A stretch of 64,000 nt of DNA, taken from positions 79,610,001-79,674,000 of the forward strand of contig NW_024704742.1 in the NCBI RefSeq assembly GCF_018977255.1, written 5' to 3'. The DNA comes from Callorhinchus milii. Taxonomy: Eukaryota. The notes below the pieces were generated by a model. The model did no database searches and was not told the DNA's origin. It was given only the letters and a program-made list of their open reading frames with translations. The position numbers were made by a program, and so were the translations under genes. Positions 3,501 to 63,080 of the stretch are shown piece after piece; position 1 is the stretch's first letter, and every line of letters starts with the position of its first letter.

Positions 3501-4030
3501 ACAGATAAAACACACATAATAGTCATTTTCTGTTAAAAATAAATCCACAAAAACACTCTGTCCTGAAGAACCAATAACCTGGTCCAGCTGTTAACCATCA
3601 TCTGTGAATCATCTGAAATGCTGTACACTGTCCAGTGTCTTGGGATGTCCTCCCAATGTGAAAGGTGCTATACAAATGTAATCTTGTTGTTGTTGTTGCG
3701 CTAAGAAACACTACCTTGTCGCTGTTCCAAAATAACCCTCACAATCTTGAATCTGTGCCCTCTTGCCTTGCTGGCTTGGTGTTTCTGAACCTATTTTTCT
3801 TGGTTTACTTAATCCATTTAGTATATTTTACACCTCAATAAATTCAAGGCAACGCATTTCTTTCAACATGGAGATTATTGGTTCCTGGTACTTGTGCAAT
3901 GTTGCTGTCTGTCAAGGAAAACCTCTAGCAATTTTTGGATCTCCAGACTGTGTGCAGATCTCCTGTTGTGGGATTAGCAATTAAACACCTTGATGTTCAT
4001 TGATGTTAAAATAATTAAAGGCCTTTCATG

Positions 4031-4051
4031 CCTTGCTTCCTTCTGTTGCAG
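4031..4051 (+). promoter_or_regulatory. 3' splice acceptor of the LINGO2 coding exon (exon starts at 4052)
   Basis: Polypyrimidine tract ccttgcttccttctgttgcAG just upstream of the start codon. LINGO genes characteristically have non-coding 5' exons and one coding exon. Confidence 0.85.
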
Positions 4052-4072
4052 GCCCTTTACCGAATGGTAGAC

Positions 4073-5890
4073 ATGCTTCACACAGCCATCTCGTGCTGGC
4101 AGCCGATCCTAAGCTTGGCTCTCATTGTTGCTCTCGTGGGCTCCACCATGGGCTGCCCAGCTCGCTGCGAGTGTGCTGCTCAGAACAAATCCGTCACTTG
4201 CCACCGCAAACGATTGACTGTGATTCCTGAGGGCATTCCCATCGAAACCAAAATCTTGGACCTGAGCAAGAACAAGCTAAAGTCCATCAACCCGGACGAG
4301 TTCTTCTCATACTCTTTACTGGAAGAAATCGATCTCAGTGAGAATATAATAACAACTGTGGAACCTGGCTCTTTCAATAACCTTTTTAACTTGCGTTCCC
4401 TTCGTCTCAAGAGCAATCGTCTAAAACTAATCCCCCTGGGTGTTTTCACAGGGTTGTCTAATTTGACCAGGTTGGATATCAGTGAGAACAAAATAGTCAT
4501 TTTGTTGGATTACATGTTTCAGGATTTACACAATTTGAAGTTTCTTGAAGTGGGAGACAATGATCTGGTTTACATTTCGCACCGAGCCTTCAATGGCCTG
4601 CTCGGACTGGAGCAACTTACCCTTGAGAAGTGCAACCTTACAGCAGTACCAACAGAAGCCCTCTCTCACCTCCACAATCTGGTAAGCCTCCGGCTCTCCC
4701 ACCTCCACGTCAGCTCCGTCCACACCTACGCCTTTAAGAAACTCTACCGACTCAAACGCTTGGAAATCGACCACTGGCCCCTACTGGATGTCCTGCCCAC
4801 CAACAGCCTCCATGGTCTGAACCTCACCTTCCTGTCCATCACCCACACCAACCTCACCGCAGTGCCCTACACGGCATTCAGACATTTGTACCATCTTGTG
4901 TACTTGAACCTGTCCTTCAATCCCATCAGCATGGTGGAATCGGGCTTGTTGCAGGACTTGGTGCGGCTGCAGGAGCTGCACCTGGTCAGAGCGCAGTTGC
5001 TGACCATCGAGCCCCGTTCCTTTCAAGGGCTGCGTGCCCTGCGGGTGCTGAATGTCTCACACAACCTGCTGGACACAATGGAGGAGAGCGCCTTCCAGTC
5101 GCTCAAGAGCCTACAGGTGCTGGCCATTGACAACAACCCACTGGCTTGTGACTGCCGCCTCCTGTGGATCATGCAGAGAAGGAAGGCATTGAGGTTTGCG
5201 GAGGAGCAGCCCGTCTGCACATCACCGGAGAGCTTGAAGGGCAAACCCTTCAAGGAGATTGCTGACGTTTTCCTCTCCAGCTACTTCACTTGCCAGAAGC
5301 CCCACATCCAAGAGAAGAAGCTTCAACACCTGTTGATTGAGGAGGGCCAGGTGGCTCAGTTCATTTGTCGGGCAGATGGGGACCCTCTCCCAATTATTTC
5401 CTGGCAGTCCCCGCGCAGAAGGATGATCACAGTAAAATCTAATGGGAGAGCCACAGTCCTGGGTGATGGCACCTTGGAGATCAGGTTTGCCCAGGTTCAG
5501 GATAGCGGGCTGTACCTCTGCATCGCCAGCAATGCTGCCGGTAATGACACTTTGTCGGCCACGCTGTTCGTCAAGGGATTTTCCGAGCATCTGCACGGAA
5601 ACAGCACCTCTCAGTACATGATTGATCTGAACAACACCCACTCAAATGGTACTCATGTGTACATGACGGTGGCGCTGGACCTTAAGACCATCCTGGTGTC
5701 CACTGCCATGGGCTGCTTCACTTTTCTGGGAGTCGTCTTGTTTTGCTTCCTGCTCCTTTTCGTATGGAGTCGGGGGAAGGGCAAGCACAAGAACAACATT
5801 GATATTGAGTACATCCCCCGTAAGACGAACGGGGCCATGTCTGATGCAGATCAAGGAGGCCCGAGGAGGTTCAACATGAAAATGATATAA
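4073..5890 (+). CDS. LINGO2: Leucine-rich repeat and Ig domain-containing Nogo receptor-interacting protein 2; CDS in a single exon (signal peptide, LRRNT, LRRs, LRRCT, Ig I-set, transmembrane helix, short tail)
   Basis: The open 620-codon ORF contains [11 protein letters not shown]...GCPARCEC...[13 protein letters not shown], matching the recalled human LINGO2 N-terminus. It also has [18 protein letters not shown]...[11 protein letters not shown], the TM segment [26 protein letters not shown] and the C-terminus [14 protein letters not shown] 4073 is the orthologous start; an in-frame ATG at 4064 adds MVD. Confidence 0.97.
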
Positions 5891-21134: not shown

Positions 21135-23330
21135 CTAAACAATATTTCCATTTACATTCTTCTTGCATTTCTTCAGGCTCTCTGTGTCAAGCCAAGTCTT
21201 TTTGAAGCCATTAGTTCTGAAGCACACAAATGCTTGGCTTGAGTATTGAAAGTCGAAAGGTTTGACACAACAGATATGAGCAATTTGATAACTGTTTGTT
21301 TCCATTTTCTCATCATAATCCTCTTTAAACACTTTGACACAAGTTAATTAAGGAATATGCTACTGTCACTGAGTAAGTTGTAATAACATCACTTTGGTGT
21401 AATTGAACATCATTAGGTGTTCCGTTCACAGGCTGCAAAATAGAAAGCAGAGGAAATTAATGTCCTTGGATCTGGAAGATTTGAATCTTTGGGGAAAATG
21501 AACTGATGGCTGGCAGATGTGATTCAATGTGACTGAGTGTAAAATAATTAGTATGGGAGCTGGGAACCAAATGAAGGATTATGTGTTAAATAGAGCATTG
21601 TTACAACGTGCTGACCTAGGTATTATAGTACATAAATCGATTACACTATCAGTCCAGTACTTTGAAGCAATGCAAAATGGCCTATGAGGAACTGAGTTTC
21701 AGGAGCAGAAGGACAGAATGCAAATCACAATTATATTGGTCTTAATAATCTATTAGAAACAGAAGTCACGAATAACAGAACTTGGGACATACTATTTGGA
21801 ATTCAGTCACTATTAATCACTCGTGTTATCATTCATTACATATTGAATCCCATTTGCTGAACTACAATAAGATCAACTTGAATCTATATGAGCGCTCTCA
21901 GTATTCCGAGGGCTCCAATTATCTAAGCACTCCAAGAAGCTATCCTGCATTATATAAATGCAACTTGTTGTTGTTGCATATAGCACCCCTCACACAGAAT
22001 AGTATCATGGGGTGCTGGGAAATTGCTAGGTACTTGGCATTGGTTAGACCCCATTGAGATATTGTGAGCAGTTTTTGGTTCCCCAATCTGAGGAATGGTA
22101 TAGGACACAGAGCGAGCAACTATGTGTTAGGAAATATTAGGAATCTAAAATATGATGAAAAGTTAAGGAAGTTGAGCATGTTCTATTTAGAATAAAGACA
22201 TTGTGTGATTGCCTGATGGGGGTTCATAAGATAGAAGGAAATTGATGAGACACACAAGTAAACATTTCAATATGGTGCTGGTTTCAAAAAATTGGCAAAA
22301 GCAATTAATAATAATAATAATAAAAGTTCTTGCATTTAACATAGCATCTTATGTCATTGGAACATCTCAAAGTGCTTCAAAGGATACAACATATTTTGTG
22401 GATATTGGACATTTGGGAAGCAGAAAAGGAATCAGGAAAAGGTTTCTACTCAAATTTAAAGACTTGTGGAATTAATTAGCAGAAAATACCATTGAAGCGT
22501 GAATTGAAGGAGGAACTGGATGGGTTATTAAAAGAAATATGATTCAGTGATGCATTCAGAAAACTGGGGATGAAAGCTATGAAAAAGGACTGGCTTTCTG
22601 ATCTTAAAGGTTTTACTTAACCTAAAAAAAATACAAACATCTGTTTTCATATACTACCAAACAATTGGATTAAAATTCCACCTGTATCCAGAGTTGCTTA
22701 ATATTTGCACTGTATTTCAGAATTTGGCAAATTAGTGAATTCAGTCTTAACTTTGAAGATATTTTTCTGTAGTTCTTAAACAAACTTACAGAAAGCCATC
22801 TACAAAATTATGGGTGTAATAAAAAATGTCAAATTATGGGGTCTCTGAAGTGTTATGTTAACAGAGTAAATCTGGACTCAGGTAGAATTTTAATATAAGC
22901 TCAATGTTTTAGGTTGTTATTGAATTCTTTCAGTCCATCAGACCTTGTGAACAAGGTACATACAGTGCTGTCTCCTAACAGTGGATTTGTGAGTCCTTAT
23001 ATTGCCGGATACATTATTCAGAATCCACCATGACTTGCTCGTCCCTGTGCTGCAAAAATGCATATTTTCAAACATGATTAATCAAAACCTGCACTACTAC
23101 TGAACCTAAAGATTGCTTCAGAAACCTTGTTCCAAACACTGACAGCATGACAGATCTAAACCACTCGAAATTGAGCCGACATTTAATTTGTTTTATCATC
23201 ATAATATTCAATCGAGGATTTGGCAGAAGTTAATTAACGAATGTGTTCTGTGTAACGAATGAGCTCTTGAAGATCACATTTTGCTATAATTGAAAATCAT
23301 TTACACTTCCATTCCCAAACTTCCAGCTGA
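21135..23330 (-). pseudogene. LG4 exon remnants (about 23050-23326 and 21135-21332)
   Basis: WKFGNGSVNDFQL*QNVIFKSSF...IR*LTSAKSSIEYY (cf. LAMA3 LQFGDIPTSHLLFKLPQELLKPRSQF). VFKEDYDEKM...FDFQYSSQAFV (cf. VFGHDGEKG...ISIRAPVYL). Weak, by-eye matches. Confidence 0.4.
21470..22600 (+). mobile_element. Degraded CR1 fragment; further CR1 pieces at about 27680-27930 (-), 28160-28630 (+), 41970-42320 (-), 47280-47430 (-) and 54340-54610 (-)
   Basis: tggcagatgtgattcaatgtg (WQM.FNV) and ttggttagacccca..gagatattgtgagcagttttgg (LVRP.LEYC.QFW) remnants. Confidence 0.7.
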
Positions 23331-23539
23331 TTTGTGGAAATAATTACCTTGGAGTAATAACACCAACAACATTTCATTGGAAATAGTGCCTTTCACGTCA
23401 GGAGGACGTCCCATGGTGCTGGACAGACAGAGTTTCGGACCCGAGCTGGGAGTTGGGATCGGGAGGGTGGAGGCAGGTGGGGAAGCAGGGTGACCAAAAG
23501 CGCTGTTGAAGTGGAAGTTTTTGAGATAGCTGCGATTGC

Positions 23540-24060
23540 GTGTCTCTTTGTGTCTATGAGTGCATGTTTGTGTTTCTCTCTGAGAATGTCTCTCTGTGTC
23601 TGTGAGTGTGTGTCTCTGTGTCTGAGTGTGTGACTCTCTGTTTGTGAGTGTGTGTTTCTAAGTGTCTATGAGTGTGAGTCTCTTTGTGTCTATGAGCGTG
23701 AGTATGTGGCTCTTTGTGTCTATGTGTGTGTGTGTGTGTGTCTCTCTCTGAGAATGTCTCTCTGTGTCTGTGAGTGTTTGTCTCTCTGTGTCTGAATGTG
23801 CATGTCTTTCTGTCTGGAGCGTGTGTCGCTCCGTGTATGAGAGCGCGTGTCTCTCTGTCTATGAGTGTGTGTTTCTTTGTGTTTATGAGTGTGTGAGTGT
23901 GTGTGTCTTGCTCTCTCTGAGAATGTCTCTCTGTGAGTGTATGAACCTGAGTGTACGAATCTCTCTCTGTGTCTGTGAGTGTGTGTGTCTCACTTTGTGT
24001 CTATGAGTGTGTGTGTCTCTCCGTGTCTATGAGCGTGTCTGACTTGCATTGTGTCTGTAT
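23540..24060. repeat. Compound (TG)/(TC) microsatellite-minisatellite, resuming at 25025-25080
   Basis: Repeated units such as tgtctatgagtgtgtgt and ctctctgagaatgtctctctg. Confidence 0.9.
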
Positions 24061-31845: not shown

Positions 31846-32072
31846 CTGTTTGAAAAACTCTTCCATGTGAGTGGACAAAGGATGCAATGTAATACTGTAA
31901 CAACAGCTAATAGATACAACATGAAATGAAGCAGTGCAATATCCAACCCCTCCCTTTTATTTTTCAGACTTTTGATAATTCAGTCCAATAAACTGTCCCA
32001 TGATATCTACCATCAAAAGCAAGTACTCCCCTTTCATTACATTCCAACATCATTGAAAAGTCTCAGTGCAAA
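31846..32072 (-). pseudogene. LG1 C-terminal remnant (MMLECNERGVLAFDGRYHG...*K*KGGVG...)
   Basis: Strong acceptor tttttcgttgtgtttatttgcttacAG and perfect donor CAG|GTAAGT. Resembles LAMA3 TLLNLDPENVVFYVGGY...YKGCIE; contains stops and a frameshift. Confidence 0.6.
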
Positions 32073-32343
32073 CTGTAAGCAAATAAACACAACGAAAAAT
32101 CAAGAATGTGCAAGCAAAATTATACATCATTCAACATCCTTAACTGGTTTTGAGGCTTTCTGCAAATAAGATTGACTTGGTTGTGTTAGAATAATCACTT
32201 TGTTCTTCATAATAATTGATCAGATGATTTCACCAATAGGAACAAACGTTGCCTTTCCCATTGCCTATACCCAACCATTTTGTTGGCCACTGATCACATT
32301 CCCCCATTTAGCATAAAGCAATGGACCGTCATATGTTACTCAC

Positions 32344-32532
32344 ATTTCGCTGATTCTGTGTGAATTATTTCAGTCAACTTGTTTGAAGCTGTTTGAAATG
32401 CATCCATCTGAGTGTGCAGCCTTTCTATAGCCAAGTCTGATTGAGCCTCTTCATGCCAGCCTTGCTGAGCGGAAACACGGGCATTGTGGGCCAGTAATAA
32501 GCACTCATTCACTAATTCCAAAGAAATGCTTC
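32344..32532 (-). CDS. Open exon, probably the middle of LG1 (SISLELVNECLLLAHNARVSAQQGWHEEAQSDLAIERLHTQMDAFQTASNKLTEIIHTESAK)
   Basis: Acceptor tcttcatcttattttcaatAG, donor T|GTGAGT; 189 nt, phase 1 in and out. ISLELVNECLLLAHN fits the LG motif F(I/L)xLELxxGxLxxxYN. Confidence 0.7.
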
Positions 32533-39134: not shown

Positions 39135-41600
39135 ACAACAACAACAACTTGGATTTATATAGCGCCCTCCACGCCAGACGGCGTCGCAGAGCACTTCACA
39201 GTAATGGATCCCGGGGCCGAGCCAGGGGGAGGTGGAGGAAAGTGACCAAAGGCGCGGTCAAAAAGAAAGGTCTCAGCAGAAACCTGAAAATAGGAAAAGA
39301 GGGAGCGAGGCGAAGGGAGTGAGGAAGGGAGTTCCAGAGCCTCGGGGCATAGTGGCTGAAGGCACGGCTGCCGAGGGTGGAGCGGAGGATTCGGGGGATG
39401 AGGAGGAGGCCAGACCCAGAGGAACAAAGGCAACGGGGACTGTTTTGAGGAGAGAGGAGGTCAGAGAGGTAGGGGAGTGCAGAGGAGTGCAGGGACTTGA
39501 AGACGAGGGTGAGGATCTTGAAATCGATCCTCTCTGGGACACGCAGCCAGTGCAGTCTGGCAAGGATTGAGGTGATTGGGGAGTGGAGTTTGGTGCAGGT
39601 GAGAATGCGGGCGGCAGAGTTTTGAATAATCTGGATTTTGTGGATGGTAGTGGAGGGGAGACTGGCGAGGAGGGTGTTAGAATAGTCCAGCCGAGAGGTG
39701 ACAAAGGCATGGACTAGGATTTCAGCGGTTCCCGGAGAGGGGTATTGGCAGAGATGGGCGATGAGTCGGAGGTGGAAGAAAGTGATGCTGGTGAAGGACT
39801 GGATGTGGGGGAGGAAGGATAATTGGGGGTCGAAACTGATGCCTAGGTTGCGTATGGGTTCAGAGAGTTTTAAGGGAAGGTCGGGTAGGTGAGAACCCTG
39901 AGATTTTAGACATTGATGAGAGCGAAAGAGTATGGCTTCTGTCTTGTCAACTGAAGGAAATTTGCACTCATCCAGCCCCTGAGGTCTGACAGGCAGGCTG
40001 ACAGAATATCAGGGGACTGGGGGTTGCAAAGAGAGATGGAAAAATAGAGTTGGGTGTCGTCCGCTTATATGTGGAAATATACCCTATGTCTGTGGATGAC
40101 ATCTCCAAGAGGGAGCATATAGATCAGAAAGAGTAGGGGGCCAAGGATGGATCCTTGGGGTACCCCACAGGTAACAGAGTGAAAGCGGAAGGAGAAGCCT
40201 TTTGTGCAGATGTACTGCTGGCAGCTTGTGAGGTAGGACTCGAACCGGGCGAGTGCGGTCCCATTCAGGTGGATGATGGAGGAAAGACGGTGGAGGAGGA
40301 TGGCATGATCGACTGTGTTGAACGCGGTGGAGAGGTCCAGGAGGACAAGAAGGCATAGGGAGCCCTGGTAACAGATAGAGAGGATGTCGTTTGTGACTTC
40401 CACAAGCGCAGTCTCTGTACTGTGGGCAGGGCGGAAACCGGACTGGAGGGGTTCGAAGAGGGAGTGGGAGGAGGTGTGCACAAAGTTGATTGGCAACAAC
40501 GCTTTCTAGGACTTTTGTGAGGAAGGGCAGGTTAAAAATACGGCGGTAGTGGCTGGGGTTTGAGGGGTCCAGGGAGGTTTTTTGAGGAGGGGGTTGATGA
40601 CAGCAGTTGTGAGGGAGGAGGGACTGATCCGGAGGAGAGGGACTGGTTGATGACGTCAGCCAGTAGTGGGCAGAGGAGGGGGAGCTGTGTGACCAGTAAG
40701 TTGGTGGAGAGGTGGTCGAGGCAGCAGTTGGTGGGTTTCATAGTGGTGATAGTAGGTGAGAGGGAGGAGGGAGAGATGGGGAGGAAGGAATGTAGGATGG
40801 GGGTGGAGGTGGGAGCAGATGATGGGGAAGGTGAGGGGACAGAGAGGGTGTGGTGGTGGATGACAAGAGGCAGGTGGATGAGGCTGCCTGGTGGATATAT
40901 AATAATAATAATCCTTGCATTTGATATAGCACTTTTCACGTCTTCTTGACCTCTCAAAGCGCTTCACAGAATATGTTGTAAAGTGATTTGACTATATTTG
41001 TGGACGAGATGTTATGAATTTTAGCTGAAAAGAAGTCCATGACCTCCTCGCACTTGGCATTTGATATGAAGATTGAGGAGACCTGAGGGGGTGCACAGAG
41101 AAGGTAGTGGGTGGTGGAAAAAAAGATTTTAGGGTTGTATTAGCCTCCAAGATGATATTGGAGTCGAAGGCCGTTTTTGCGCGTGTCAAAGATTGACGGT
41201 AGCTGTGGAGATGCTCGAGCCACAGTTGGTGGTGAACTGTCAAGCCAGTTTTCCACCATCGGCACTCGAGCAGACGGGTTTGGGTTTTTTGGCGGCGGAG
41301 ATGGTTGTTGTACCAGGAGAATTGGGTGGGTTTGGAGATGGTCCTAGATTTTAGAGGGATGAGGGAATTGAAGTTGGAGTAGAGGCGATCATGGAACAGC
41401 TGGATGGCTGCTTCAGGATCTCCGTGGGTGGAAGGCCAGAGGGATAGGATGTTTGATGATGTGAGGGCCTTTGTGAGAGTCTCAGGGTGTAGCCTTTTCC
41501 AAGGGCGGTAGAGCATGGTTGAGGGCTTGGTGGAGGAGAGAGGGATGTGAGAGGAGAAGGAGATGAGGAAGTGGTCCGAGATGGCCTTGTCCACTATGCA
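39135..41600 (-). mobile_element. L2-clade LINE, 5'-truncated (endonuclease end, RT, 3' tail), degenerate; SINE fragment inserted at about 40896-41003
   Basis: ISDHFLISF (endonuclease), QSGFRPAHSTETAL, LLDLSTAFNTVDH, GVPQGSILGPLLFLIYM, ADDTQ; (TTG)n tail. Confidence 0.92.
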
Positions 41601-43709: not shown

Positions 43710-44770
43710 AGCAGAAAGCAGAGAGTAGTGGTGAACGGTTGTTTTCTGTCAATTACTGGAGGGAAGTGTCAAGTGGTGTCCCCCAGGGATTGGGATCATT
43801 GGTGTTTGGATCTGTGTAAATGTCCTGGACTTGGGTATAGGGAGTACAATTTCCAAGTTTGCAGATGATACTAAGCTAGGAAAAGTAATAAACAGTGAGG
43901 AGGATAGTAACAGACTGCAAATAGACATAGACAGACTGGTAAAATGGGCCGACATGTGGCAGATGAAGTTTAATGTGGAGAAATGCAAAGTGATGCATTT
44001 TGGGAGGAAGAATAAGGAGAGGCAATATAAGCCGATGGTACAATCTTAAAGGCGGTGAAGGAACAGAGAGACCTGGGGGTTCATATAAGTAAATCTTTGA
44101 AGGTGACAGGACAGGTAGATAAAGCTGTTAAAAAAGCATACGGCATACTTGGCTTTATAAATAGGGGTATAGAATACAAAAGTCAGAAAGTTATGATGAA
44201 ACTTTATAAAACACTGGTTAGGACTCAGCGAGAGTACTGTGTTCAGTTCTGGGCACTACAATTTAGGAAGGATGTCAAGGCATTGGAGAGGGTGCAACGG
44301 AGATTTACCAGGATGGTACCAGGAATGAGAGACTTCAGTTATCAAGAGTGGCTAGAGAAGCTCGGATTATTCTCCTTGGAGCAGAGAAGGTTAAGCGGTG
44401 ACTTAATAGAAGTTTTCTAAATTATGAGGGGATTCGATAGGGTGAATAAGGAAAAATTATTTCCACTGGTGGGTGGGTCGGTAACCCGAAGGCACCAATT
44501 TAAAATAGTTGTTAAAAGAAACAGAGGGGAGGTTAGGAGAATTTTTTTTCACACAGCGAGTTGTTTGGATCTGGAATGCATGATGGAAGCCGATTCAATA
44601 ACAACTTTTAAGAGAGAAATAGATAATTACTTCGGGAGGACAAGTTTGCAGGGTGTGGGAATAGAGCAGGGTAGTGGGATTGATTTGGATAACTCTTTTC
44701 AAAGAGTCGGCACAGATACGATGGGCCAAATGGCCTCCTTCTGTACTGTATAATTCTATAATTCTATGAC
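43710..44770 (+). mobile_element. CR1 LINE 3' fragment (RT C-terminus and 3' UTR)
   Basis: SGVPQG, SKFADDTKLG, WADMWQMKFNVEKCKVMHFG, RDLGV, LEKLGLFSLEQRRL; ATTCTATA tandem tail. Confidence 0.93.
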
Positions 44771-44831: not shown

Positions 44832-44948
44832 CATTGTTGCTGCTAGTCAAAGTCTTTAACATTTCTTTAACATTATCTTGTAGTTGTCTTTCCCTTTCAG
44901 GCAAACTGGATTTCAGAGTCTCCAAATGTTTTGATAAATCATTGATTC
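44832..44948 (-). CDS. Open laminin-alpha coiled-coil exon (GINDLSKHLETLKSSLPERERQLQDNVKEMLKTLTSSNN)
   Basis: Acceptor tgttgttttctgtgttcAG, donor ATG|GTAAGC; 117 nt, phase 1 in and out, continuing the frame of the 53598-53842 exon. Confidence 0.75.
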
Positions 44949-53597: not shown

Positions 53598-53842
53598 CTT
53601 TCAACTTTGACTTAGCCTGTTGCAAATGATCTTTCAGAGTAAGTGCTGTGTTATAGTTGTCTGATGCCTTTTCTTCAAGAGCAGCTAAGGAGTCATTCCT
53701 AAACATTATCATGGCCTGCTGGATAGTTGTGTTTGCTGTCTGGACGGTTGTCATTGATGCTTCCATCATTTTGGTAATGTTGCTAAATGTCTCCATGACA
53801 TTAATAGCATCTTTGCCATGTTGCCCAGCCACCATGAAAATC
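53598..53842 (-). CDS. Open laminin-alpha domain II exon (IFMVAGQHGKDAINVMETFSNITKMMEASMTTVQTANTTIQQA...QQAKSKLK)
   Basis: Acceptor tttacatttatttcctAG, donor AAG|GTACAA; 245 nt, phase 2 in (matches the previous exon) and phase 1 out. DAINVMETFSNITKMMEAS resembles LAMA3 AVDAATAYENILNAIKAA. Confidence 0.8.
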
Positions 53843-54012
53843 CTAGGAAATAAATGTAAATATGATCAATTTTCTTTTTAAGGGACTTGTCCTCTCATCT
53901 ATGGTATAGACCAATGAGATAGAATGATGGCATTGCTAACAAAAGCAATCCTGAAAGTGCATTTTTCAATATTTCAAGGGTTGAAAACATCAGCCCCCAC
54001 CCTCCCACCCCT

Positions 54013-54108
54013 CTCTCCATAGATGCTGCCTGACCTGTTGAGTGTTCTCAGCAACATCTGTGTTTTTTTATTTCTGATTTCCAGCTCCTGCAATATTTTG
54101 CCTTTTGT
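54013..54108 (+). repeat. Partial copy (right arm plus tail) of the Penelope-type element; another at about 43343-43405
   Basis: ctccatagatgctgcctgacctgttgagtgttc...tttccagc...tattttgccttttg matches 59370-59457. Confidence 0.75.
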
Positions 54109-55005
54109 ATATTATAATGGGATTGGCCTGTAGAAGGAATTTAGTAATTGTTCTATTCTTAGTCTTGTGAATACAGTAGATTTGCTTAGTTCCAATTGTG
54201 TAGAACTCAAGTAATAAGTACCTTAAAATACAATAGATTGATTTGTACCAGAGAAAGTTTGATTTGTACTATAAGAACAGATAACGCATTGGTATCCATT
54301 CCTGATTAGTTTTTAGTGCAATATGCAGTTTCCCTCAGGACATAAGAACATAAGAACATAAGAAATGCTAGACAAAAAAAGACCAAGGTCCATCTAGTTC
54401 ACCTTCCTGGCGGTCACATGCACATATGTCCCAAAGTACCTCTGTACTATATCCCATCATGTTATTTCCTAAAACTATCTAATCTGTGTTTGAAAGAATC
54501 AACACTTCCTGCTTCAACAGTCTCCTTAGGAAGGCTGTCCCATGGGTCCATTATTCACTCACTGAAAAAGTATTTGTGTAGAGTCGTTCTAAATTTACCC
54601 CCCTAAGTTTTATTGCAAGTGCAGCTTGGTCCTGAGAAAATGTCAAACATGTAGACCACTGTATAGTATCTACATTGATGTGTCAATATATTGAAGTCAG
54701 GTTCCAACCAACAAAGGACTTTATAATAATAATCGTTGCATTTGATATAGCGCCTTATTACATCTTCAAGACGTCTCAAAGCGCTTCACAGAATATACTG
54801 TAAAGTGAATTGACTGTATATTTTGTTGCCGAAATATACAGTCAATTTGCCCTGCTAACATTTATACATTTCTTCCACCAAATCTTGTGTTAAAAATTAG
54901 TTTATTTTCAATCTATTTCCTCAGCATGTCAATGGTTATAATTACTAACGTACCAGAATGAAATTCAATTGGACAATTTCATTCTTACAATAAAAAATGA
55001 AAGAC

Positions 55006-55150
55006 CTTTGTATCTTCTGAGCCTGGTGCTCCAGTTGCTCCACGTAATCCTTTGTTCGTCTCAGCTTTGGCTTTAATGTTTGAATGTTTTTCTGAGTATT
55101 GTTTAATGTATTCTCCAGTTTCTTCAGGTCTTGCAGCAATCCTGAAGAGC
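55006..55150 (-). CDS. Open laminin-alpha coiled-coil exon (SSGLLQDLKKLENTLNNTQKNIQTLKPKLRRTKDYVEQLEHQAQKIQR)
   Basis: Acceptor atatttctcaaacAG (in-frame alternative start at 55141), donor AG|GTCTTT; 145 nt, phase 1 in and phase 2 out. DYVEQLEHQAQKIQ resembles the laminin-alpha LVEEAEKHARSLQ motif. Confidence 0.75.
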
Positions 55151-55899
55151 CTGTTTGAGAAATATAAAATAATCAATGCTTAATCATTCACCCAGATTTT
55201 AAATTAACAATAACATCCCATTGCAAATGATCAGTTTTAATGCTTTTATTTTTAAAAAATGATTTCAGTAAAAAAATTAAATAAGAAATTATAGTGCCTA
55301 CAATTTACAGGCTGTCTCACACCTCAGCCTCACTTGTCTTGGAGATCAATGATCATTTAGCGATCATTGGGGGGAACATAGTTTATCATTATTATTAATA
55401 GTAATAATAATCTGTTCTTTTGATACAGCACTTTACCTTGTCGCAATGCCTCAAACCTCCTCACGAGATTTACTGAAACAGTAGGGACTGTGTCTGTGTA
55501 AATATATAAGTTGCGGTTGTATTTGTACAACAACAATAACAAATTGCATTTATATAGCACCTTTCATGTCAGAAGGATATCCCAAAGTGTTGGATAGTCA
55601 AGACTTTGCACCTGAGTGAGCTGGCGTTTGGATTCAGGAGGGGCGGGGGCTGGATGTGAGCAGGCAAAAATGACTGAAAGCATGATCTTAAGATGGACCT
55701 TGAAGAAGGTGAGGGAAGAGATGAGATGAAGGGACTCCAGGATGGACACAGATAGTTTGATAGCCTGACCACCAATGAGTGTTTAAAAGTGAGAATGAAG
55801 ATCTTGAACTCAATCCTCTGGAAGGTGGGGAACTAGTGGAGCTGGATGAGATTGGGGGTGATCTACTCATGGAACCTAAGGTGGGAGACAAATACAGCA

Positions 55900-57197
55900 G
55901 CCAATTTTAATGAATGTGCTCACTTTCTCCTGTTCATTCTCTTCTTCAACACATTTTGAATTTCGACTCTCTTACTGTCATATTGAAAAAAATCTTTATT
56001 TACATTGCATTCAGCCTAATGGCCAACCTTTCCTTTCTTCGAACAAGCTTTGTAACTTTTTGCTAATCTTAATATTCCTTTTTATTTCCCTATTGATCCA
56101 GTTTGATCATTTCCTGCTGAACTTGGGCTTCTGCTTGCCCTGGAAGCTTTGCATAATGTTTTTCATGTATGTCCATTTATCCATTTAACTGGTTTGTCCT
56201 TGAGTAATGCTTCCCAGTCTATGTCACTTAGCTCAGTCCTCATTCCCCAGAAGTATGCCAGTCTAAAGTTGTACACCAGAGTTGGTTACGTACTTAATAA
56301 TAATAATAATCCTTGCATTTGATATAGCGCTTTTCACGTCGGGAGGACGTCCCAAAGCGCTTCACAGAACACACTGTAAAGTGAATTGACTGTATATTTG
56401 TGGGCGAACGCGGCAGCCAATTGCGCATAGCAATGTCCCACAAACAGTCGAAGATTGAAAATGACCAATTTATTATTGTTTTTGGTTTTGGAGGGATTAT
56501 TATTAGGCGTGTGGAGTAAGGAAACTTGCCCAAGGTTTCGCCCTGTGCCTGGAATTGAATTCAGGTCTCTCGCTTGCAAAGCGAATGCTCTAACCACTGA
56601 GCTACTGGACTCCACTTGTGCCATTTCCTAACTCAAATTGAATGTTGTTGATCTGTGGTCACTGACACCCAGTGGATCAACTACTTCCACTCCATGAATA
56701 GTGTCTAGGTCACTGACTACAATTAGGTCAAGGAGGGAGCTGCCCCTGTGCACTCCGACACACTGAGTCACAAAGCAGCTACACCCTATATTAACAAGCT
56801 TAGAATCCTTTTGTGGTGGAGCAGAGGACCTCTGAACCTGTGTCCACTTCACCCAAATGAGCTCCACCAGTCCTCTACCAATATCTTCCCATTTGGGCAA
56901 TTGCAGTTTATATTGGACGGATTGAAGTCCATCAGCAGTACAATCCTCTTTGTCTCATACACACTCCTAACATTATTATGTAGTGATAAGTCACTCTCCC
57001 CACTTTAGCCTGATGACCTACAGCAAACCCCAAATGTTAGTCCAGTCTTTCCCATTGAACACATCTAACTAGAGGATTTTATACTGTGATTGATCCTGCA
57101 TTGCTGGTTCAACTAACTTAACCTCCCTTGGACATATGGAAACCACTCCGCTTTTCCTATCTTTCCTGAATAACCTGTGCCCTTCACAATTGCTCAC
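55900..57197 (-). mobile_element. CR1 LINE endonuclease-region fragment split by a SINE
   Basis: LLDLIVVSD...PLGVSDHRSTTF (endonuclease end), then RTELSDIDWEALL...WINREIK. Confidence 0.8.
56295..56612 (-). mobile_element. tRNA-derived SINE, short subfamily, inserted in a CR1 fragment
   Basis: Near-consensus reverse-complement copy with CR1 ORF2 sequence on both sides. Confidence 0.92.
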
Positions 57198-58509
57198 NAA
57201 AAAACTGCAGAACAGGACTTAACGATACTGCCATTCAGCATGTCATGACCACAATGTACTTTACATTAACTGACAAAACTAAATACATTAAAAGGCACAA
57301 TAATATAAATAATGATTTTGAATTTGGGAAGCAGAGTGCATCCCTCCAAGGAGAGAATGCACATTCCATTCCAGGCACAGGAAAATTTCCATATGTAGGT
57401 GGCATACATATGAGGAACACTCAGACTGATTTGGATACTCTTAAGCATAATGATGGTTTTATGCTTGTGTCAGACATCCAGCTGATAAAAAAAACAATGA
57501 TGATGTATGTAACAAAACATATTTTGCAATTGAAACAGCAGCAAATATTTTACTTTTAAAATGTGAATGCACAAAGCCTTAATTTACTTTTCATTTACCC
57601 CTAGAGTCCAATACTCTCATCAGCAATGTTCAATTTAAATGTTGAAGATATTTTGAAAAATGGTTCCATGTGCAGTCCAAGAATGAAACCAAACATAAGA
57701 AACAGTGCCAATGCTGCAAACAAATAAAATCCCCAGCAATATTCATAATAGCTTATCATGAGACAATTGGAGAAAAAGTACAATTAGAACATACTGCAGA
57801 AAAATATTATAAAAGGTTTACATTTGATGAAACTCCAATTATATTTTTGAATAGTGAGAGACAATTCTGTGTCTCCATGTCTGAAAGGAAATATGAGTCT
57901 TATGCGTACAACCATTCATCAAGCTTAGTATTCAGTGCAACACATAATGTGAGTTACGTCAGTGACAGCATGATGTTCACAGATGGCTAGCTGGCTGGCT
58001 GAATGAATAGACTTCCAGTTACCCCTTTCCAGAAAAATTATAAAGGATTGAATGGACACCGGTTTAGTAAAAATGAATCAAGACACTTGAATTGTTGAAA
58101 AGAACAAATTATTGTTCACAACTGAACAAATGCAAGAATAAACAAAAGCTCAATAGCTCATTTTGAATTATTTACTCTGTGTGGTAAAGTAGCGGCTGAA
58201 AGTGGTAAGAAATACATTTTGTTATCTTGTGACTGTATCTTGCCAGGCATTGCCTTTCACAGTGTTTATTGTCTTGAGTTTACTTCCTGACACAAGTATG
58301 AAAATGCACTCTTTACCTTTTAGGTAGTTCAGGTGATTGAGTTGTGAAAAGCGTCCAGATGGGACAGGTTTAATTCCTAGTGGACCCGTCTAACATTCAC
58401 AAATGATAAAATGAGCATTGTGGCCCAAACTCTTTTTCAATAAGAACACTTTTCTTCATGATAGATTCTTCAAACTGATTAATGAGTGACTGTGGTTACA
58501 CTATGTTAC

Positions 58510-58669
58510 CCTTCTATTCTTCAAGCCCGTCATTACGTGTCATTCAATGTTTGTTTAACCAACAAGTGGCCAAAGTATGGTTAAGCAGCTTCTCAATCTT
58601 TTATTCAGTGAACTCCAGTCTAAATCTGGTTTACCTCCTGGGTGGAGATTATCTCCTAACTGGATAGTT
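58510..58669 (-). pseudogene. Decayed laminin coiled-coil (domain I) exon (TIQLGDNLHPGGKPDLDWSSLN/KIEKLLNHTLA...)
   Basis: Strong acceptor tttcttcttctgtctttcttaacAG and donor G|GTAACA. A frameshift and stops are needed to read through. Confidence 0.45.
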
Positions 58670-59267
58670 CTGTTAAGAAAGACAGAAGAAGAAACATGGC
58701 AAATGGAGTGTAAAATGGTTTAGATTGCTAAAAGTAGCAAGGCAAAAGAAATGAGATGAAGTGGAAAAGAAAGTCATAATAATGATTGCACTTGATATAG
58801 TGCCTTATCACTTTGTTAAGACGTCCCAATAGCTTCACAGAGTATACTGTAAAGTGAATTGACTGTGTATTTTGTGGGTGAAACACAGCGACCAATTGCA
58901 CACAGCAGTGTCCCACAAACAGTTGTGGATTGAAGTGACCAATTTATTTTTATTAATTTATTTTTTTGAAGGATTTATTACCCCTGGAAACCAATCCGCC
59001 AATTGACTAACAACCATTTTCCTACTTAGTGCTGGGTAAACAGAGGCATGTGGAGTAAGGAATCTTTCCAAACATTTCATCCCACCCGGGAATCAGCTTC
59101 TCTCGCTTGCGAAGCAACTGCTCTAAGCAATATGCTACAGGACTCCACCCATGTGGGACAAGGCCACTGAAAATAAAATCTGCTCGTGGACATACATGGC
59201 TATATGTAGATTGCTGATATCTAAATAGGAAAGAACAGTCATGGAAGCAATGTGACTAGAAATATTA

Positions 59268-59456
59268 ACAGAAGCCGCTGGGAACACTCAGTAGGTCAGG
59301 CAGCATCTATGGAGAAACAAAAGTTCTGACGAAGGGTCGTGGACCCGAAACGTTGACTCACTTTCTTTTCTCCATAGATGCTGCCTGACCTGCTGAGTGT
59401 TCCCAGCGACTTCTGTTTTTGTTCCAGATTTCCAGCATCTGCAGTATTTTGCGTTT
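59268..59456 (+). mobile_element. 189-bp Penelope-type palindromic non-autonomous insertion carrying a hammerhead ribozyme
   Basis: Perfect 15-bp direct repeat TGACTAGAAATATTA at 59253-59267 and 59457-59471 (target-site duplication). Inverted arms at 59267-59317 and 59367-59417. Confidence 0.85.
59322..59358 (+). ncRNA. Minimal type I hammerhead ribozyme motif
   Basis: Stem I AGUU/GACU; core CUGACGA(A); stem II GGGUC-GUG-GACCC; GAAA; palindromic AC-GU stem III; cleavage triplet GUU (59352-59354). Confidence 0.75.
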
Positions 59457-60100
59457 TGACTAGAAATATTATTGGTTAGATAAGATTTTTCCAGACACAG
59501 TTGAATCTCCTATGAGATGGACAATTCTTAAAGCACAATGTTATCCCATGTTCTGAAATGATCGTAACATGTCAAAAAACACAGATAATTCCAGTATTTG
59601 TTTTTCCTGCCTGCCTGACCAGTTGGATGGTAAAGATCTCAGGGTACTATTCAAAAAGAGAAGGGTGTTTCTCCTGGTGACATGGTCAACAATTCCCCAA
59701 ATAAAATGGGTTACTCACTTAATGGCTTTTTGTGAGACATTGCTATATGTGAACTGATTGCTGCGTTCGGCTACAAAATACACAGTAAATCCTGTGAAGC
59801 TATTGAGCCATACTGACGACATGATAAGGCACTGTATCAAATGCAAGGATTATTATCACTGAAATAGGGAACGAAAGTACAATGAAAGCTTGTAGGACTG
59901 AACCATCATAAATCAACCTTGAACAATCAGGAAGGAGCAGTCAGCTATACAGCAATGACCTAGATTTGAAGTAATAATAAGTTGCTTTTGTTTCTGCTTC
60001 ATTTTCCAGGTGAGTATTCAGCTTGGAAATTGAGGATTTTCAAATTCAGGATGTATTTCAATTATCTTTACTGAACAAAAAGTCCTTTGGTTTTATTCAC

Positions 60101-60216
60101 CATCATAAAGCCTTTTTCGTAGGAAATGCAATGTGTTGTTCTGCATTCAATTGTTTGAAGAAATGTTGCTTTACATTCTGAGTTCTGAGGCAACATTCAG
60201 CAACTGTGTACATAAA
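60101..60216 (-). pseudogene. Candidate decayed coiled-coil exon (LCTQLLNVASELRM*SNISSNN*MQNNTLHFLRKRLYD)
   Basis: Bounded by AG and GTGAAT, with heptad-like composition and two stops. Weak similarity only. Confidence 0.25.
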
Positions 60217-60849
60217 CTGTGTGGAGTTTTGATCAAGTAAACCTTTCATTTACAGTAATCAAAACGTCACAAAGAATTCAGAGATTAATTGTAATTGAGT
60301 TTTGACCTTCTGGTAATGATCTAAATCCCCAATCTATGTGTGAAATAATACAGAATGCTGCCAGATATCCAGTGCAAAAAAATTTATAATGAAAGTTTTC
60401 TATTTGATTACGTTTTATTTCAGCAAAAGAACATTGATGTGATTTTCTGTGTTAATTTTAATATGGTAAAAGATCACTGCCAGCTAAATCCTATACAAGA
60501 ATGAAGGGAGTCTTACAATATGGAATTTTTAATTTCAATGCAAAGTTTGAAAGCTGGGCTGGAGCAATTATTTCTTCACTCTTAATAATAATTTGAAGGA
60601 TCAGAAACCTGGCTTTTGGAAGCTAGGAGACTGAGCTAAACTTAGAAATGTTATCTCTCAGATTGCTTGAAGCTGTACAGAGAATTTGGTTGCTAGGATC
60701 TCTTGTGTAAACATTGTGCAAACAATAATGTCTTTTACGTGAGTTGTTCAGACCGTATGTAAATGTTTTATTAATGAATGATAAAACTGATATATCTGTT
60801 GGTCTTTAAATTGGTCATTTAAGGACGGTTCAGTACATAAGAGGACAAG

Positions 60850-61163
60850 CGAGTCAAATAGCTCAGTGGTTAGAGTACTCGCTTTGCAAGTGAGACACCT
60901 GACTTCAATTCCAGGCAGGGCGAAACCTTGGGCAAGTTTCCTTACTCCACACGCCTGATAATAATCCCTCTAAAAAAACAAAACAATAATAAATTGGTCA
61001 TTTTCAATCCATGACTGTTTGTGGGACACTGCTGTTCGCAATCAGCTGCCGCGTTCGCCCACAAATATACAGTCAATTCACTTTATAGTATATTCTGTGA
61101 AGCGCTTTGGGACGTCTAGAAGACGTGAAAAGTGCTATATCAAATGCAAGGATTATTATTATT
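60850..61163 (+). mobile_element. tRNA-derived SINE, short subfamily
   Basis: TAGCTCAGTGGTTAGAG head and (TTA)n tail. Confidence 0.9.
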
Positions 61164-61299
61164 AAATCTGAATTACATCAGCTAAGCAGTTCACAAGATC
61201 ACTGATTGTTTGGGATGAAGAAAGTCTTTGGGTCTATTTCATCTCATTCTTCCAGATTACATACCCTAATGTTTTCCCATCGCAGCATATCAAGATACT

Positions 61300-61460
61300 G
61301 TGTTTTTTAAAAAGCGTCCAGTGTCCTAGCCTCAACCAGATTTTAGCTTTACAACAATGCCTTGACTTTTGGGATTGTGCTGAATTTTGGGAAAAGCCTT
61401 AAATTTGCTAAAAGGTATTTTTCTGCAGTTCCACACTTAAGGAAAGTCAATCATTGCAAG
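61300..61460 (-). pseudogene. Candidate decayed first coiled-coil exon (ACND*LSLSVELQKNTF*...)
   Basis: Acceptor catatttctggacacAG, phase 1 and so compatible with the MAM exon. CND-TGA resembles the CxxC that opens laminin-alpha coiled coils if the TGA derives from TGY. Several stops; the 3' boundary is approximate. Confidence 0.3.
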
Positions 61461-62992
61461 CTGTGTCCAGAAATATGAGGGTCATACAAAAGTATAGGAG
61501 GTTTGAAATGCAGCAATGCGATGCAGTTGTTATCTCATACCTTCAGAACTGATGTGTAAAAGTCACAGTGGCTAGTTTGGTTGTGATGCAACTAGAATGC
61601 TATTTGTATTACCATACCTGAATAAATGATACCAACTGTGCTGTCAGGATCAATTTTCATTTTTATTCAAGAGCTGATCACATCCTTGTAGTACTTCAAG
61701 ATATACATTTTTAAAGAAGCTGCATAATCTTTGGAGATAGGTGAAGCATTTTTAAAAATATAATTAGCTTTGATCCCTCATACAGCCTTGAGGGGTCAAC
61801 AAAAAAGAATACCGTTTCTTTTACTTGAGACTGTGAATCAAATTCCCCACTGAGTAAGAGTTACCCTGAAGAGGCTATGAAAGGAATATTTTGAAATTTT
61901 GCAAAATATCTGTGCTGCAAAAGAAAGACAAGCTTTGAAGGAAAATTATCATTTTTTAAACACCAGTCATTAGGTGTTGGGAGTTAAAAGAAACAAAGAA
62001 TTGGTTTCATGTGTATTTTAAAAGCAGGAGTAACCATTCAGTCTGTGCCACCAATCAATTGATCAATCAATTCATCAATCAGTCTCTCCACCCACTCATC
62101 CATTCATCTACCCATCCATCTCCAAGCCAATATAAAACTGACAAATATTTCAATCCACTGTGTGAGTCATTCCATAGTTAAAGCAGAATGGGTCCAGAGT
62201 ATTACAGTTGTAAAAATACTGTGGTTGTACATTTTCATATATAGAATAATTGCCAAATACAATTATAATGCAGTAATTTTGTAATCAATCTCTCTCTTTC
62301 AAATTTCTCAATCTATTGTCTATCATTTGTCTTCTGAGCCAGCGCATTCCACATTCTCAAAACCTTTCATGAAGATAATGTTTTCTTAATTCAATTGTAA
62401 ACAGCTCTAATTTTAAGATCTCAATTCCATGGATGTTAAATTGTATGACAAATGGTCCAACAAATAAGACCAGGTGAGAGAGAGTGAAATTCCACCTAGG
62501 CCCATATTTACTCTATTTATATGTAGCATTTCAGCTGCCTATTTGGCAAATTGTTGAATTCAGTCTCAACTTTGTAGTTAACCCTGTAATGATGAGTCAA
62601 CAGACTCGCTAACATTCTGCTCAAGTGTAGATGTCATTGTGATCCATCTGATTTTGTGCGTGCACGAGAATATGTCTTTAGAAGTTTACATTCTCTGAGT
62701 TGTTGGTCTCAGGTGGGGATGCATGGGGAGGCTAAATTGCCCCTGGTCTTTCTTGGAGTAGAGTAGAGAAAAACAGCTTCTACAACATATTATTAGAGCC
62801 CTGGGATGCTGCAGTATTTCCAGTATGATTTTCAGTTTCCAGATCCTCAAAGTAAAAGCAACATGAATTATACAGAATATCAGCATTCACTCAATTTGCA
62901 CATTAGAAAGAACTGGGACATCAATTAATTGTTTGATCATTGCATGAACTGTTTCTAAGAACTCGTAAGAATAGCATCAAATTTAATCTCAC

Positions 62993-63080
62993 CACATGGC
63001 CCCTCTCTGTAGTTTACATCATCTATGGCAATGTTTGCTTGACTGGTCATCGAGTTTTCATTGTAGCCCTCCAAAATGAT
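62993..63080 (-). CDS. Exon encoding the C-terminal end of a MAM domain: IILEGYNENSMTSQANIAIDDVNYREGPC
   Basis: Acceptor tttcctgttcatttttgcAG and donor G|GTGAGA; 88 nt, phase 0 in and phase 1 out, open frame. Matches the MAM C-terminal signature (I/V)xFE...xxIAIDD(I/V)xxxxGxC. Confidence 0.85.

Follow-up and report, generated by a model that had tools for sequence, protein, structure and literature searches.

A putative LG-less, beta/gamma-like laminin chain of Callorhinchus milii with a MAM domain in its coiled-coil rod

The stretch analyzed here, which we call the window, comprises 64,000 nucleotides of the genome of Callorhinchus milii (contig NW_024704742.1, positions 79,610,001 to 79,674,000), and close to its end, on the minus strand, it carries an 88-nt exon (62993..63080) that is the fourth of four exons encoding one complete MAM domain. 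We propose, with a probability of about 0.6, that this domain forms a cassette, in phase 1 at both ends, within the long arm of a divergent, beta/gamma-like laminin chain that has no LG domains. The laminin-family gene concerned lies on the minus strand and extends over at least 157 kb, and the simplest reading would be that of a single gene in which the rod is interrupted by the MAM cassette. The proposal is built on what is observed in the DNA, namely the order, strand and splice sites of the exons, a 704-aa frame that stays open, the identities of the domains and heptad periodicity. It should be noted that coordinates above 64000 are extrapolated window coordinates (position on the contig, called C1 below, minus 79610000, the window being C1 79610001-79674000), and that genome-wide searches refer to this 0.99-Gb genome.

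An earlier sequence-only reading of the window had described the exon at 62993-63080 as an open 88-nt minus-strand exon with canonical splice sites that ends in phase 1, and the sequence reads so. Specifically, read from the minus strand, the preceding intron closes with a canonical AG acceptor (...tttttgcag), the exon runs from ATCATTTTGGAG to GGGCCATGTG (edge letters ATCATT...CCATGTG), and the following intron opens with a canonical GT donor (gtgagatt). The translation is IILEGYNENSMTSQANIAIDDVNYREGPC, with one base left over at the 3' end (phase 1). The open reading frame (ORF) containing the exon aligns to positions 128-157 of the 158 of the Pfam MAM profile with 13.9 bits (E 0.048), which is weak by itself, and in a local search at E≤10 the exon peptide found matches in 147 of 150 MAM-bearing proteins. 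The assignment of the exon to a MAM C-terminus, also made in the sequence-only reading, is borne out by this profile match together with three collinear upstream MAM exons and a full-length alignment of the joined domain. The three exons lie on the same strand outside the window, 12-29 kb upstream of the fourth, and the features of the MAM block are as follows:

91751-91915 (L010:7751-7915), minus strand: MAM exon 1, phase 1-1; Pfam MAM 1-43, 20.4 bits
78663-78839 (L009:4663-4839), minus strand: MAM exon 2, phase 1-1; Pfam MAM 42-99, 32.0 bits
75364-75461 (L009:1364-1461), minus strand: MAM exon 3, phase 1-0; Pfam MAM 99-137, 18.1 bits
63081..64000, minus strand: start, within the window, of the intron 5' of MAM exon 4 that leads to MAM exon 3, the remaining gene lying beyond the window end
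62993..63080, minus strand: MAM exon 4 of 4, the exon flagged by the earlier reading, phase 0 in and phase 1 out, ending in ...NYREGPC

MAM exon 2 was also returned by a genome-wide MAM search, as a single same-strand match (29.5 bits, profile 42-99) at a distance of 15 kb upstream, and exons 3 and 1 were located by ORF-by-ORF Pfam scans of the upstream DNA, in which 141 and 108 ORFs were scanned. The four exons have AG/GT borders throughout and phases that fit one another (1-1, 1-1, 1-0, 0-1), and exon by exon they cover positions 1-157 of the Pfam MAM profile (PF00629; 20.4 + 32.0 + 18.1 + 13.9 bits), with exon 2 alone exceeding the gathering cut-off of 26.4 bits. The joined domain is 176 aa long, its residues 4-176 align to natural MAM domains with up to 112 bits per domain, and the usual MAM motifs are present. 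The four conserved MAM cysteines are likewise all in place, two in exon 1 (C..C), one in exon 2 and one in the final GPC of exon 4, and they occupy positions 304, 314, 381, and 471 of the joined 704-aa reading described below. An exhaustive protein-library search with MAM exon 2 gave 166 proteins at E≤0.001, none of them more than 49% identical, and of eight that were looked up six are named by their sources as MAM/LDL-receptor class A proteins of invertebrates and two are nameless. The MAM and LDL-receptor class A domain-containing protein 1-like proteins of amphioxus, scallop, nemertean, and abalone align with the MAM domain over its full length at about 35-42% identity. They differ from the chain proposed here in being MAM arrays (with LDLa), and none of the best 150 is similar to the coil exons A-D introduced below.

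MAM exons also occur elsewhere in this genome. On the minus strand of the same contig (C1 86405748-86437162), about 6.7 Mb from the window, a multi-MAM gene devotes three exons to each MAM domain, and it is distinct from the present MAM block, which is split over four exons. The closest paralogue of MAM exon 2 in the same genome (E 0.036) lies on the plus strand of another contig (C2 116082423-116082581), some 190-240 kb from a true LAMA locus, a proximity that presumably recalls the receptor-phosphatase/LAMA neighborhoods of mammals.

The MAM block is flanked on both sides, on the same strand, by exons that encode a coiled coil. They are given here in the order of the gene:

124422-124687, minus strand: first coil exon (CC1), opening with C-D-S-C
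113359-113525, minus strand: coil exon U1
112815-112974, minus strand: candidate coil exon X, a weak candidate
101522-101671, minus strand: coil exon U2
93292-93439, minus strand: candidate coil exon Y, with a strong acceptor and an end in phase 1, 1.4 kb upstream of MAM exon 1
55006..55150, minus strand: coil exon A, phase 1 in and 2 out, with a weak donor
53598..53842, minus strand: coil exon B, phase 2 in and 1 out, 81 aa with three N-x-S/T sequons
44832..44948, minus strand: coil exon C, phase 1 in and 1 out
32344..32532, minus strand: coil exon D, phase 1 in and 1 out, with a gtgagt donor at 32343

From the C-D-S-C exon to exon D, the 13 exons of the coil and the MAM block join into 2115 nt that encode 704 aa with 0 stops, and AG/GT is found at every junction (26 dinucleotides). 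The MAM block has phase 1 at both ends, as do the borders that face it, the end of exon Y and the start of exon A; its junctions read ...FWDKG-E-GGRSAADC... and ...REGPC-G-SSGLLQ..., so that Gly-rich linkers (KGEGGRSAAD... and ...GPCGSSG) flank the domain. Exons A-D are non-repeat ORFs with canonical sites, and their phases (1-2, 2-1, 1-1, 1-1) chain with one another and with MAM exon 4; joined to the four MAM exons they give 407 aa free of stops. The nine exons first found are unique, unmasked sequence, exons X and Y are 0% masked, and CC1 and U2 were drawn from ORFs that were listed only if less than 20% masked. The N at position 57198, between MAM exon 4 and exon A, which the sequence-only reading had named as a possible misjoin, is one ambiguous base and no gap.

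The sequence-only reading had placed laminin coil exons downstream of the MAM exon on the same strand, and heptad-repeat exons are indeed found 7.8-9.4 kb away (55006-55150 and 53598-53842), their coil being of the extracellular type and part of a laminin-family gene. Taken singly, exons A and C each have a heptad periodicity above all of 1000 shuffles, and exon B, which is unique in the genome, has none. Joined, exons A-D encode 231 aa with a period-3.5 hydrophobic power of 4.13 (shuffles 0.51±0.52; 0 of 2000 reach it), and the five coil exons of the upstream rod encode 296 aa with a power of 8.39 (shuffles 0.54±0.54; 0 of 2000 reach it). Both halves show the period-3.5 signal and the upstream half opens with paired cysteines (C-D-S-C), as in a laminin-type rod. 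When a coil filter was run over 184 kb on both strands, four segments passed, all on the minus strand; these are exon A, exon C, one upstream coil exon, and a further segment upstream of the MAM exons that by eye looks SINE-derived (short interspersed nuclear element). Against Pfam, exon A gives weak generic coil matches to 26 families, among them Laminin_I (E 0.0028) and Laminin_II (E 0.0056). Solved-structure searches with exons B and D returned nothing relevant, with no detectable similarity to the structure of the beta-1 C-terminus, and a Protein Atlas search with exon B returned only bacterial helical TelA clusters of low recognition, which is uninformative.

The MAM block can thus be said to interrupt the coil, because it is preceded by the short arm and about 296 aa of coil and followed by 231 aa of coil. 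If the block is skipped the frame remains open and encodes a 528-aa rod. A length of 528 aa is close to that of the rods of beta and gamma chains, which argues that both halves of the coil belong to one chain.

Exon A has a second in-frame acceptor at 55141, 9 nt downstream, and a stronger-looking gtaaga donor at about 54989, some 17 nt past the donor used, with which its phase would fit exon C rather than exon B; alternative splicing of exon A is possible on these grounds. At the other end of the rod, exon D when read through ends in ...TESAKCE-stop, the TAA lying at 32336-32338, two codons past the Cys. A short further exon may be reached from the gtgagt donor at 32343. A relaxed search for an exon following D gave 27 acceptor-ORFs, none with a usable donor save two that are antisense to a LINGO coding exon. 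A possible short terminal exon after D is seen on the minus strand at window positions 31940-32072 (...FCTETFQ-stop, with AATAAA about 100 nt on), and is speculative.

Upstream of the coil the same strand carries the pieces of a laminin short arm, recognized with Pfam and a solved-structure library:

132755-189693, minus strand: LE/L4/LF/LN short-arm exons
147992-148198, minus strand: Laminin_B (L4) piece, 30.1 bits (cut-off 22.4)
168473-169183, minus strand: truncated-LE/LF-type junction, from solved-structure alignment of a 237-aa ORF
176280-176732, minus strand: LN-end/LE1 junction, aligning to netrin, laminin alpha-1, and gamma-1 structures
189394-189693, minus strand: weak Laminin_N piece, 20 bits (Pfam cut-off 25.9)

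LE-type Pfam matches were found in 10 of 150 ORFs and then in 4 of a further 97; these 14 ORFs match EGF_laminin or EGF_LMN_ATRN (top score 69.9 bits) and form tandem LE repeats. In the 5' to 3' direction the order is a weak LN, about five LE ending in a truncated one, an apparent LF-type insert, and then more LE with one L4. The best solved relatives of the ORF at 168.5-169.2k are laminin beta-1 (4aqs, 79 bits, E 3e-21) and the LE5-LF-LE6 fragment of beta-2 (5lf2, 62.8 bits), the alignment to the latter passing the truncated LE and reaching about 20 residues into LF, and the LE ORF at 155.6-155.9k has its best match in beta-2. The next candidate LF ORF found no match in the solved-structure library, and the L4 piece found nothing relevant among solved structures. 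An LF-type insert after a truncated LE at about the fifth position is the rule for laminin beta chains, and the L4 and LF folds structurally resemble MAM domains (PMC5338690). The short arm found here combines an apparent LF-type insert with an L4 insert and hence fits no class, be it alpha, beta, or gamma, and within the same genome its different pieces have their nearest paralogues at LAMA loci, at a usherin-like locus, and at LN-bearing loci of possible beta type. The joined frame covers the last 13 exons of the gene, and the intactness of the LE, LF, and L4 region is judged from open ORFs only.

An LG tandem was sought in several ways. Pfam Laminin_G matched none of 380 minus-strand ORFs at 6000-64000 (146 + 129 + 105) and none of the 150 plus-strand ORFs scanned out of 165 unmasked ORFs of at least 42 aa. 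In a genome-wide Laminin_G_2 search, in which 150 of 176 candidates were scored, no match fell within 700 kb of the locus, and when exons from two true LAMA loci (C2 115.8 Mb and C18 14.9 Mb), LG exons included, were compared with the locus by tblastn, only repeats were matched.

We now put forward a hypothetical mechanism for such a chain. The phase 1-1 MAM cassette would be spliced into the laminin message of an expressed gene, and the resulting chain would assemble into laminin-like trimers. Because it has no LG domains it would functionally be a beta/gamma-type partner, contributing one strand of the coiled-coil trimer, and the MAM domain would project from the long arm much as the knob of beta chains does. 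The match of phases at the two ends of the block does not by itself prove that the MAM exons are included, because skipping them also preserves the frame.

Several observations weigh against the proposal. The protein libraries contain no protein with these exons, and word-based searches with MAM exon 2, exon B, and the exon B ORF were null, it being noted that the 'longer' mode used with MAM exon 2 and exon B stops at 2000 aa and that a full-length model of the chain, at about 2200 aa, could have been missed; a search of sequencing runs with exon B listed no RNA run that carries it. The exhaustive search with MAM exon 2 returned generic MAM arrays only, with nothing above 49% identity. Given that no library protein corresponds to it, the gene may be unannotated, unexpressed, or decaying. 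The open 528-aa frame that omits the MAM block has to be counted here too, as do the weakness of candidate exon X and the poor donor of exon A. The Laminin_N match is below the Pfam cut-off and a genome-wide Laminin_N search gave nothing on this contig, the coil exons have no specific match to Laminin_I or Laminin_II, and a genome-wide Laminin_II search gave nothing at the locus. The type of the chain is also ambiguous, some of its LE and L4 pieces being nearest to alpha or usherin-like loci of the same genome.

Part of this evidence bears on a reading in which the MAM exons stand outside the laminin message, belonging either to an independent or nested same-strand gene within the 38-kb intron between exons Y and A or to a truncated isoform that ends at 61460. 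The feature concerned is the following:

61449..61460, minus strand: candidate alternative terminal mini-exon after MAM exon 4, reading A-C-N-D-stop

The sequence-only reading had noticed this phase-1 candidate and it is present, stopping after four codons, but its acceptor is weak, scoring 2.2 on a crude in-house scale on which the used exons score 3.6-5.0. The laminin frame stays open when the block is skipped, MAM modules are often phase 1-1 so that the phase match is weak evidence, and no library protein joins MAM to exons A-D. On the other side, MAM exon 1 starts in phase 1 without an ATG, no signal-peptide exon was found between exon Y and MAM exon 1, and the sole nearby signal-peptide candidate (93785-93635), judging by its motif, appears to stem from a repeat and has 26% of its 3' part masked. 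Exon Y sits 1.4 kb upstream, its acceptor is strong, and its end is in the phase required by MAM exon 1, and the Gly-rich linkers on both sides fit an inserted domain. We consider a separate MAM gene or truncated isoform unlikely, though it is the foremost of the alternatives. A small orphan gene of the form signal peptide-MAM-coil, with a speculative signal-peptide exon at 146.4k, was also entertained and was abandoned when LE and coil exons came to light upstream.

Slightly less likely again is a unitary pseudogene, in which case the entire locus would be an additional laminin paralogue, silent or in decay but with mostly open exons, and the MAM domain within the coil would have no present function. 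Decay was already suspected in the earlier reading, the region of LE1 seems to have diverged, the weak LN signal stays under its cut-off and was missed genome-wide, and neither the three word-based searches nor the exhaustive one found a matching protein. Set against this are 2115 nt over 13 exons without a stop or frameshift, canonical dinucleotides at all 26 splice sites, 14 open LE-type ORFs, the retention of every hallmark cysteine of the MAM domain, and the heptad periodicity that has been kept. The model of the sequence-only reading itself, a laminin alpha chain in which MAM takes the place of the LE short arm and is followed by a coil and an LG1-5 tandem, is in our view highly improbable. 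In its favor are the phase fit from MAM to coil and some LE and L4 pieces whose closest counterparts in this genome are LAMA loci. The LG tandem is, however, absent by Pfam on either strand, by the genome-wide search at the locus, and by tblastn with true LG exons, and exon D reaches a stop; the alpha-chain assignment is not supported, the chain having no LG. Nor has MAM replaced the short arm, as LE, L4, LF-type, and weak LN pieces lie upstream on the same strand, together with 296 aa of coil, and the domain is found inside the coil; the LE repeats, which that reading had itself named as speaking against a MAM-only arm, are indeed there. What stands of its central claim is the joining of MAM to a laminin coil, which holds at the level of gene structure with splice phases that fit; what changes is the place of the domain, inside the rod of a probable LG-less, beta/gamma-like chain.

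Compared with known laminins, the chain proposed here shares with the beta chains (beta-1 and beta-2; 4aqs, 5lf2) an LE array in which about the fifth LE is cut short and what looks like an LF-type insert comes after it, a CxxC at the start of the rod, and the lack of LG. It differs from them in having an additional L4 (Laminin_B), which the beta class does not have, and more LE, in its very diverged LN, in coil exons without similarity to the solved beta-1 C-terminus, and in a rod insert that is a 176-aa MAM domain here and a short Cys-rich knob in beta. A rod broken by a non-helical insert and a Cys near the C-terminus are features of beta chains that the present chain resembles. With the gamma chains it shares an L4 inserted in LE, a rod opened by CxxC, and the absence of LG, whereas the LF-type junction sets it apart; gamma chains have neither an LF-type insert nor an interruption of the rod. 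The LE/L4 short arm recalls the alpha chains, and some pieces have their closest relatives at LAMA loci of this genome, but the LG1-5 tandem that defines alpha chains was not found in any test.

Few matrix proteins have been catalogued as well as the laminins, and a mixture of beta-type with gamma/alpha-type short-arm inserts and a MAM domain in the rod would be a new architecture. Our literature search found no described laminin chain with a MAM domain. Teleost and mammalian surveys give standard alpha, beta, and gamma chains only, with 14 standard laminin genes in a teleost and MAM unmentioned in the portion of the source at hand (PMC9504374). It is conceivable, and we advance it tentatively, that a further laminin class, LN-LE-LF-LE-L4-LE-rod-MAM-rod without LG, survives in chimaeras and perhaps also in other cartilaginous fishes, and that it would have arisen when exon shuffling brought a phase 1-1 MAM module into the long arm at a phase-1 intron. 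If so, the rod of the trimer would bear a protein-binding or self-associating domain found in no described laminin, the chain may be an old vertebrate paralogue that was lost in bony vertebrates, and the gene would show in a clean form how a coiled coil can receive a domain by exon shuffling. Such a chain would raise the questions of its trimer partners and of the binding partner of a MAM domain placed midway along the long arm. Should the MAM exons never be spliced in, what is left is a divergent and unannotated laminin paralogue beside a LINGO gene.

The neighboring gene, on the plus strand (window 4019-5890) and convergent with the laminin-like one, is a single-exon, 623-aa ORF of the LINGO family; among solved structures LINGO-1 comes closest to it (720 bits). 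Self-similar repeats make up about 33% of the extended locus of 184 kb, and RVT_1 fragments of LINE type (long interspersed nuclear element) are found at 40068-40505 on the minus strand, at 43735-44046 on the plus strand, and at L011:9459-9689 on the minus strand (54.8, 23.3, and 17.4 bits, respectively). Between exon D and the LINGO gene, at window positions 23300-24000, long ORFs in several frames consist of His/Thr/Arg or Cys/Val/Ser runs, which indicates a simple-sequence repeat tract.

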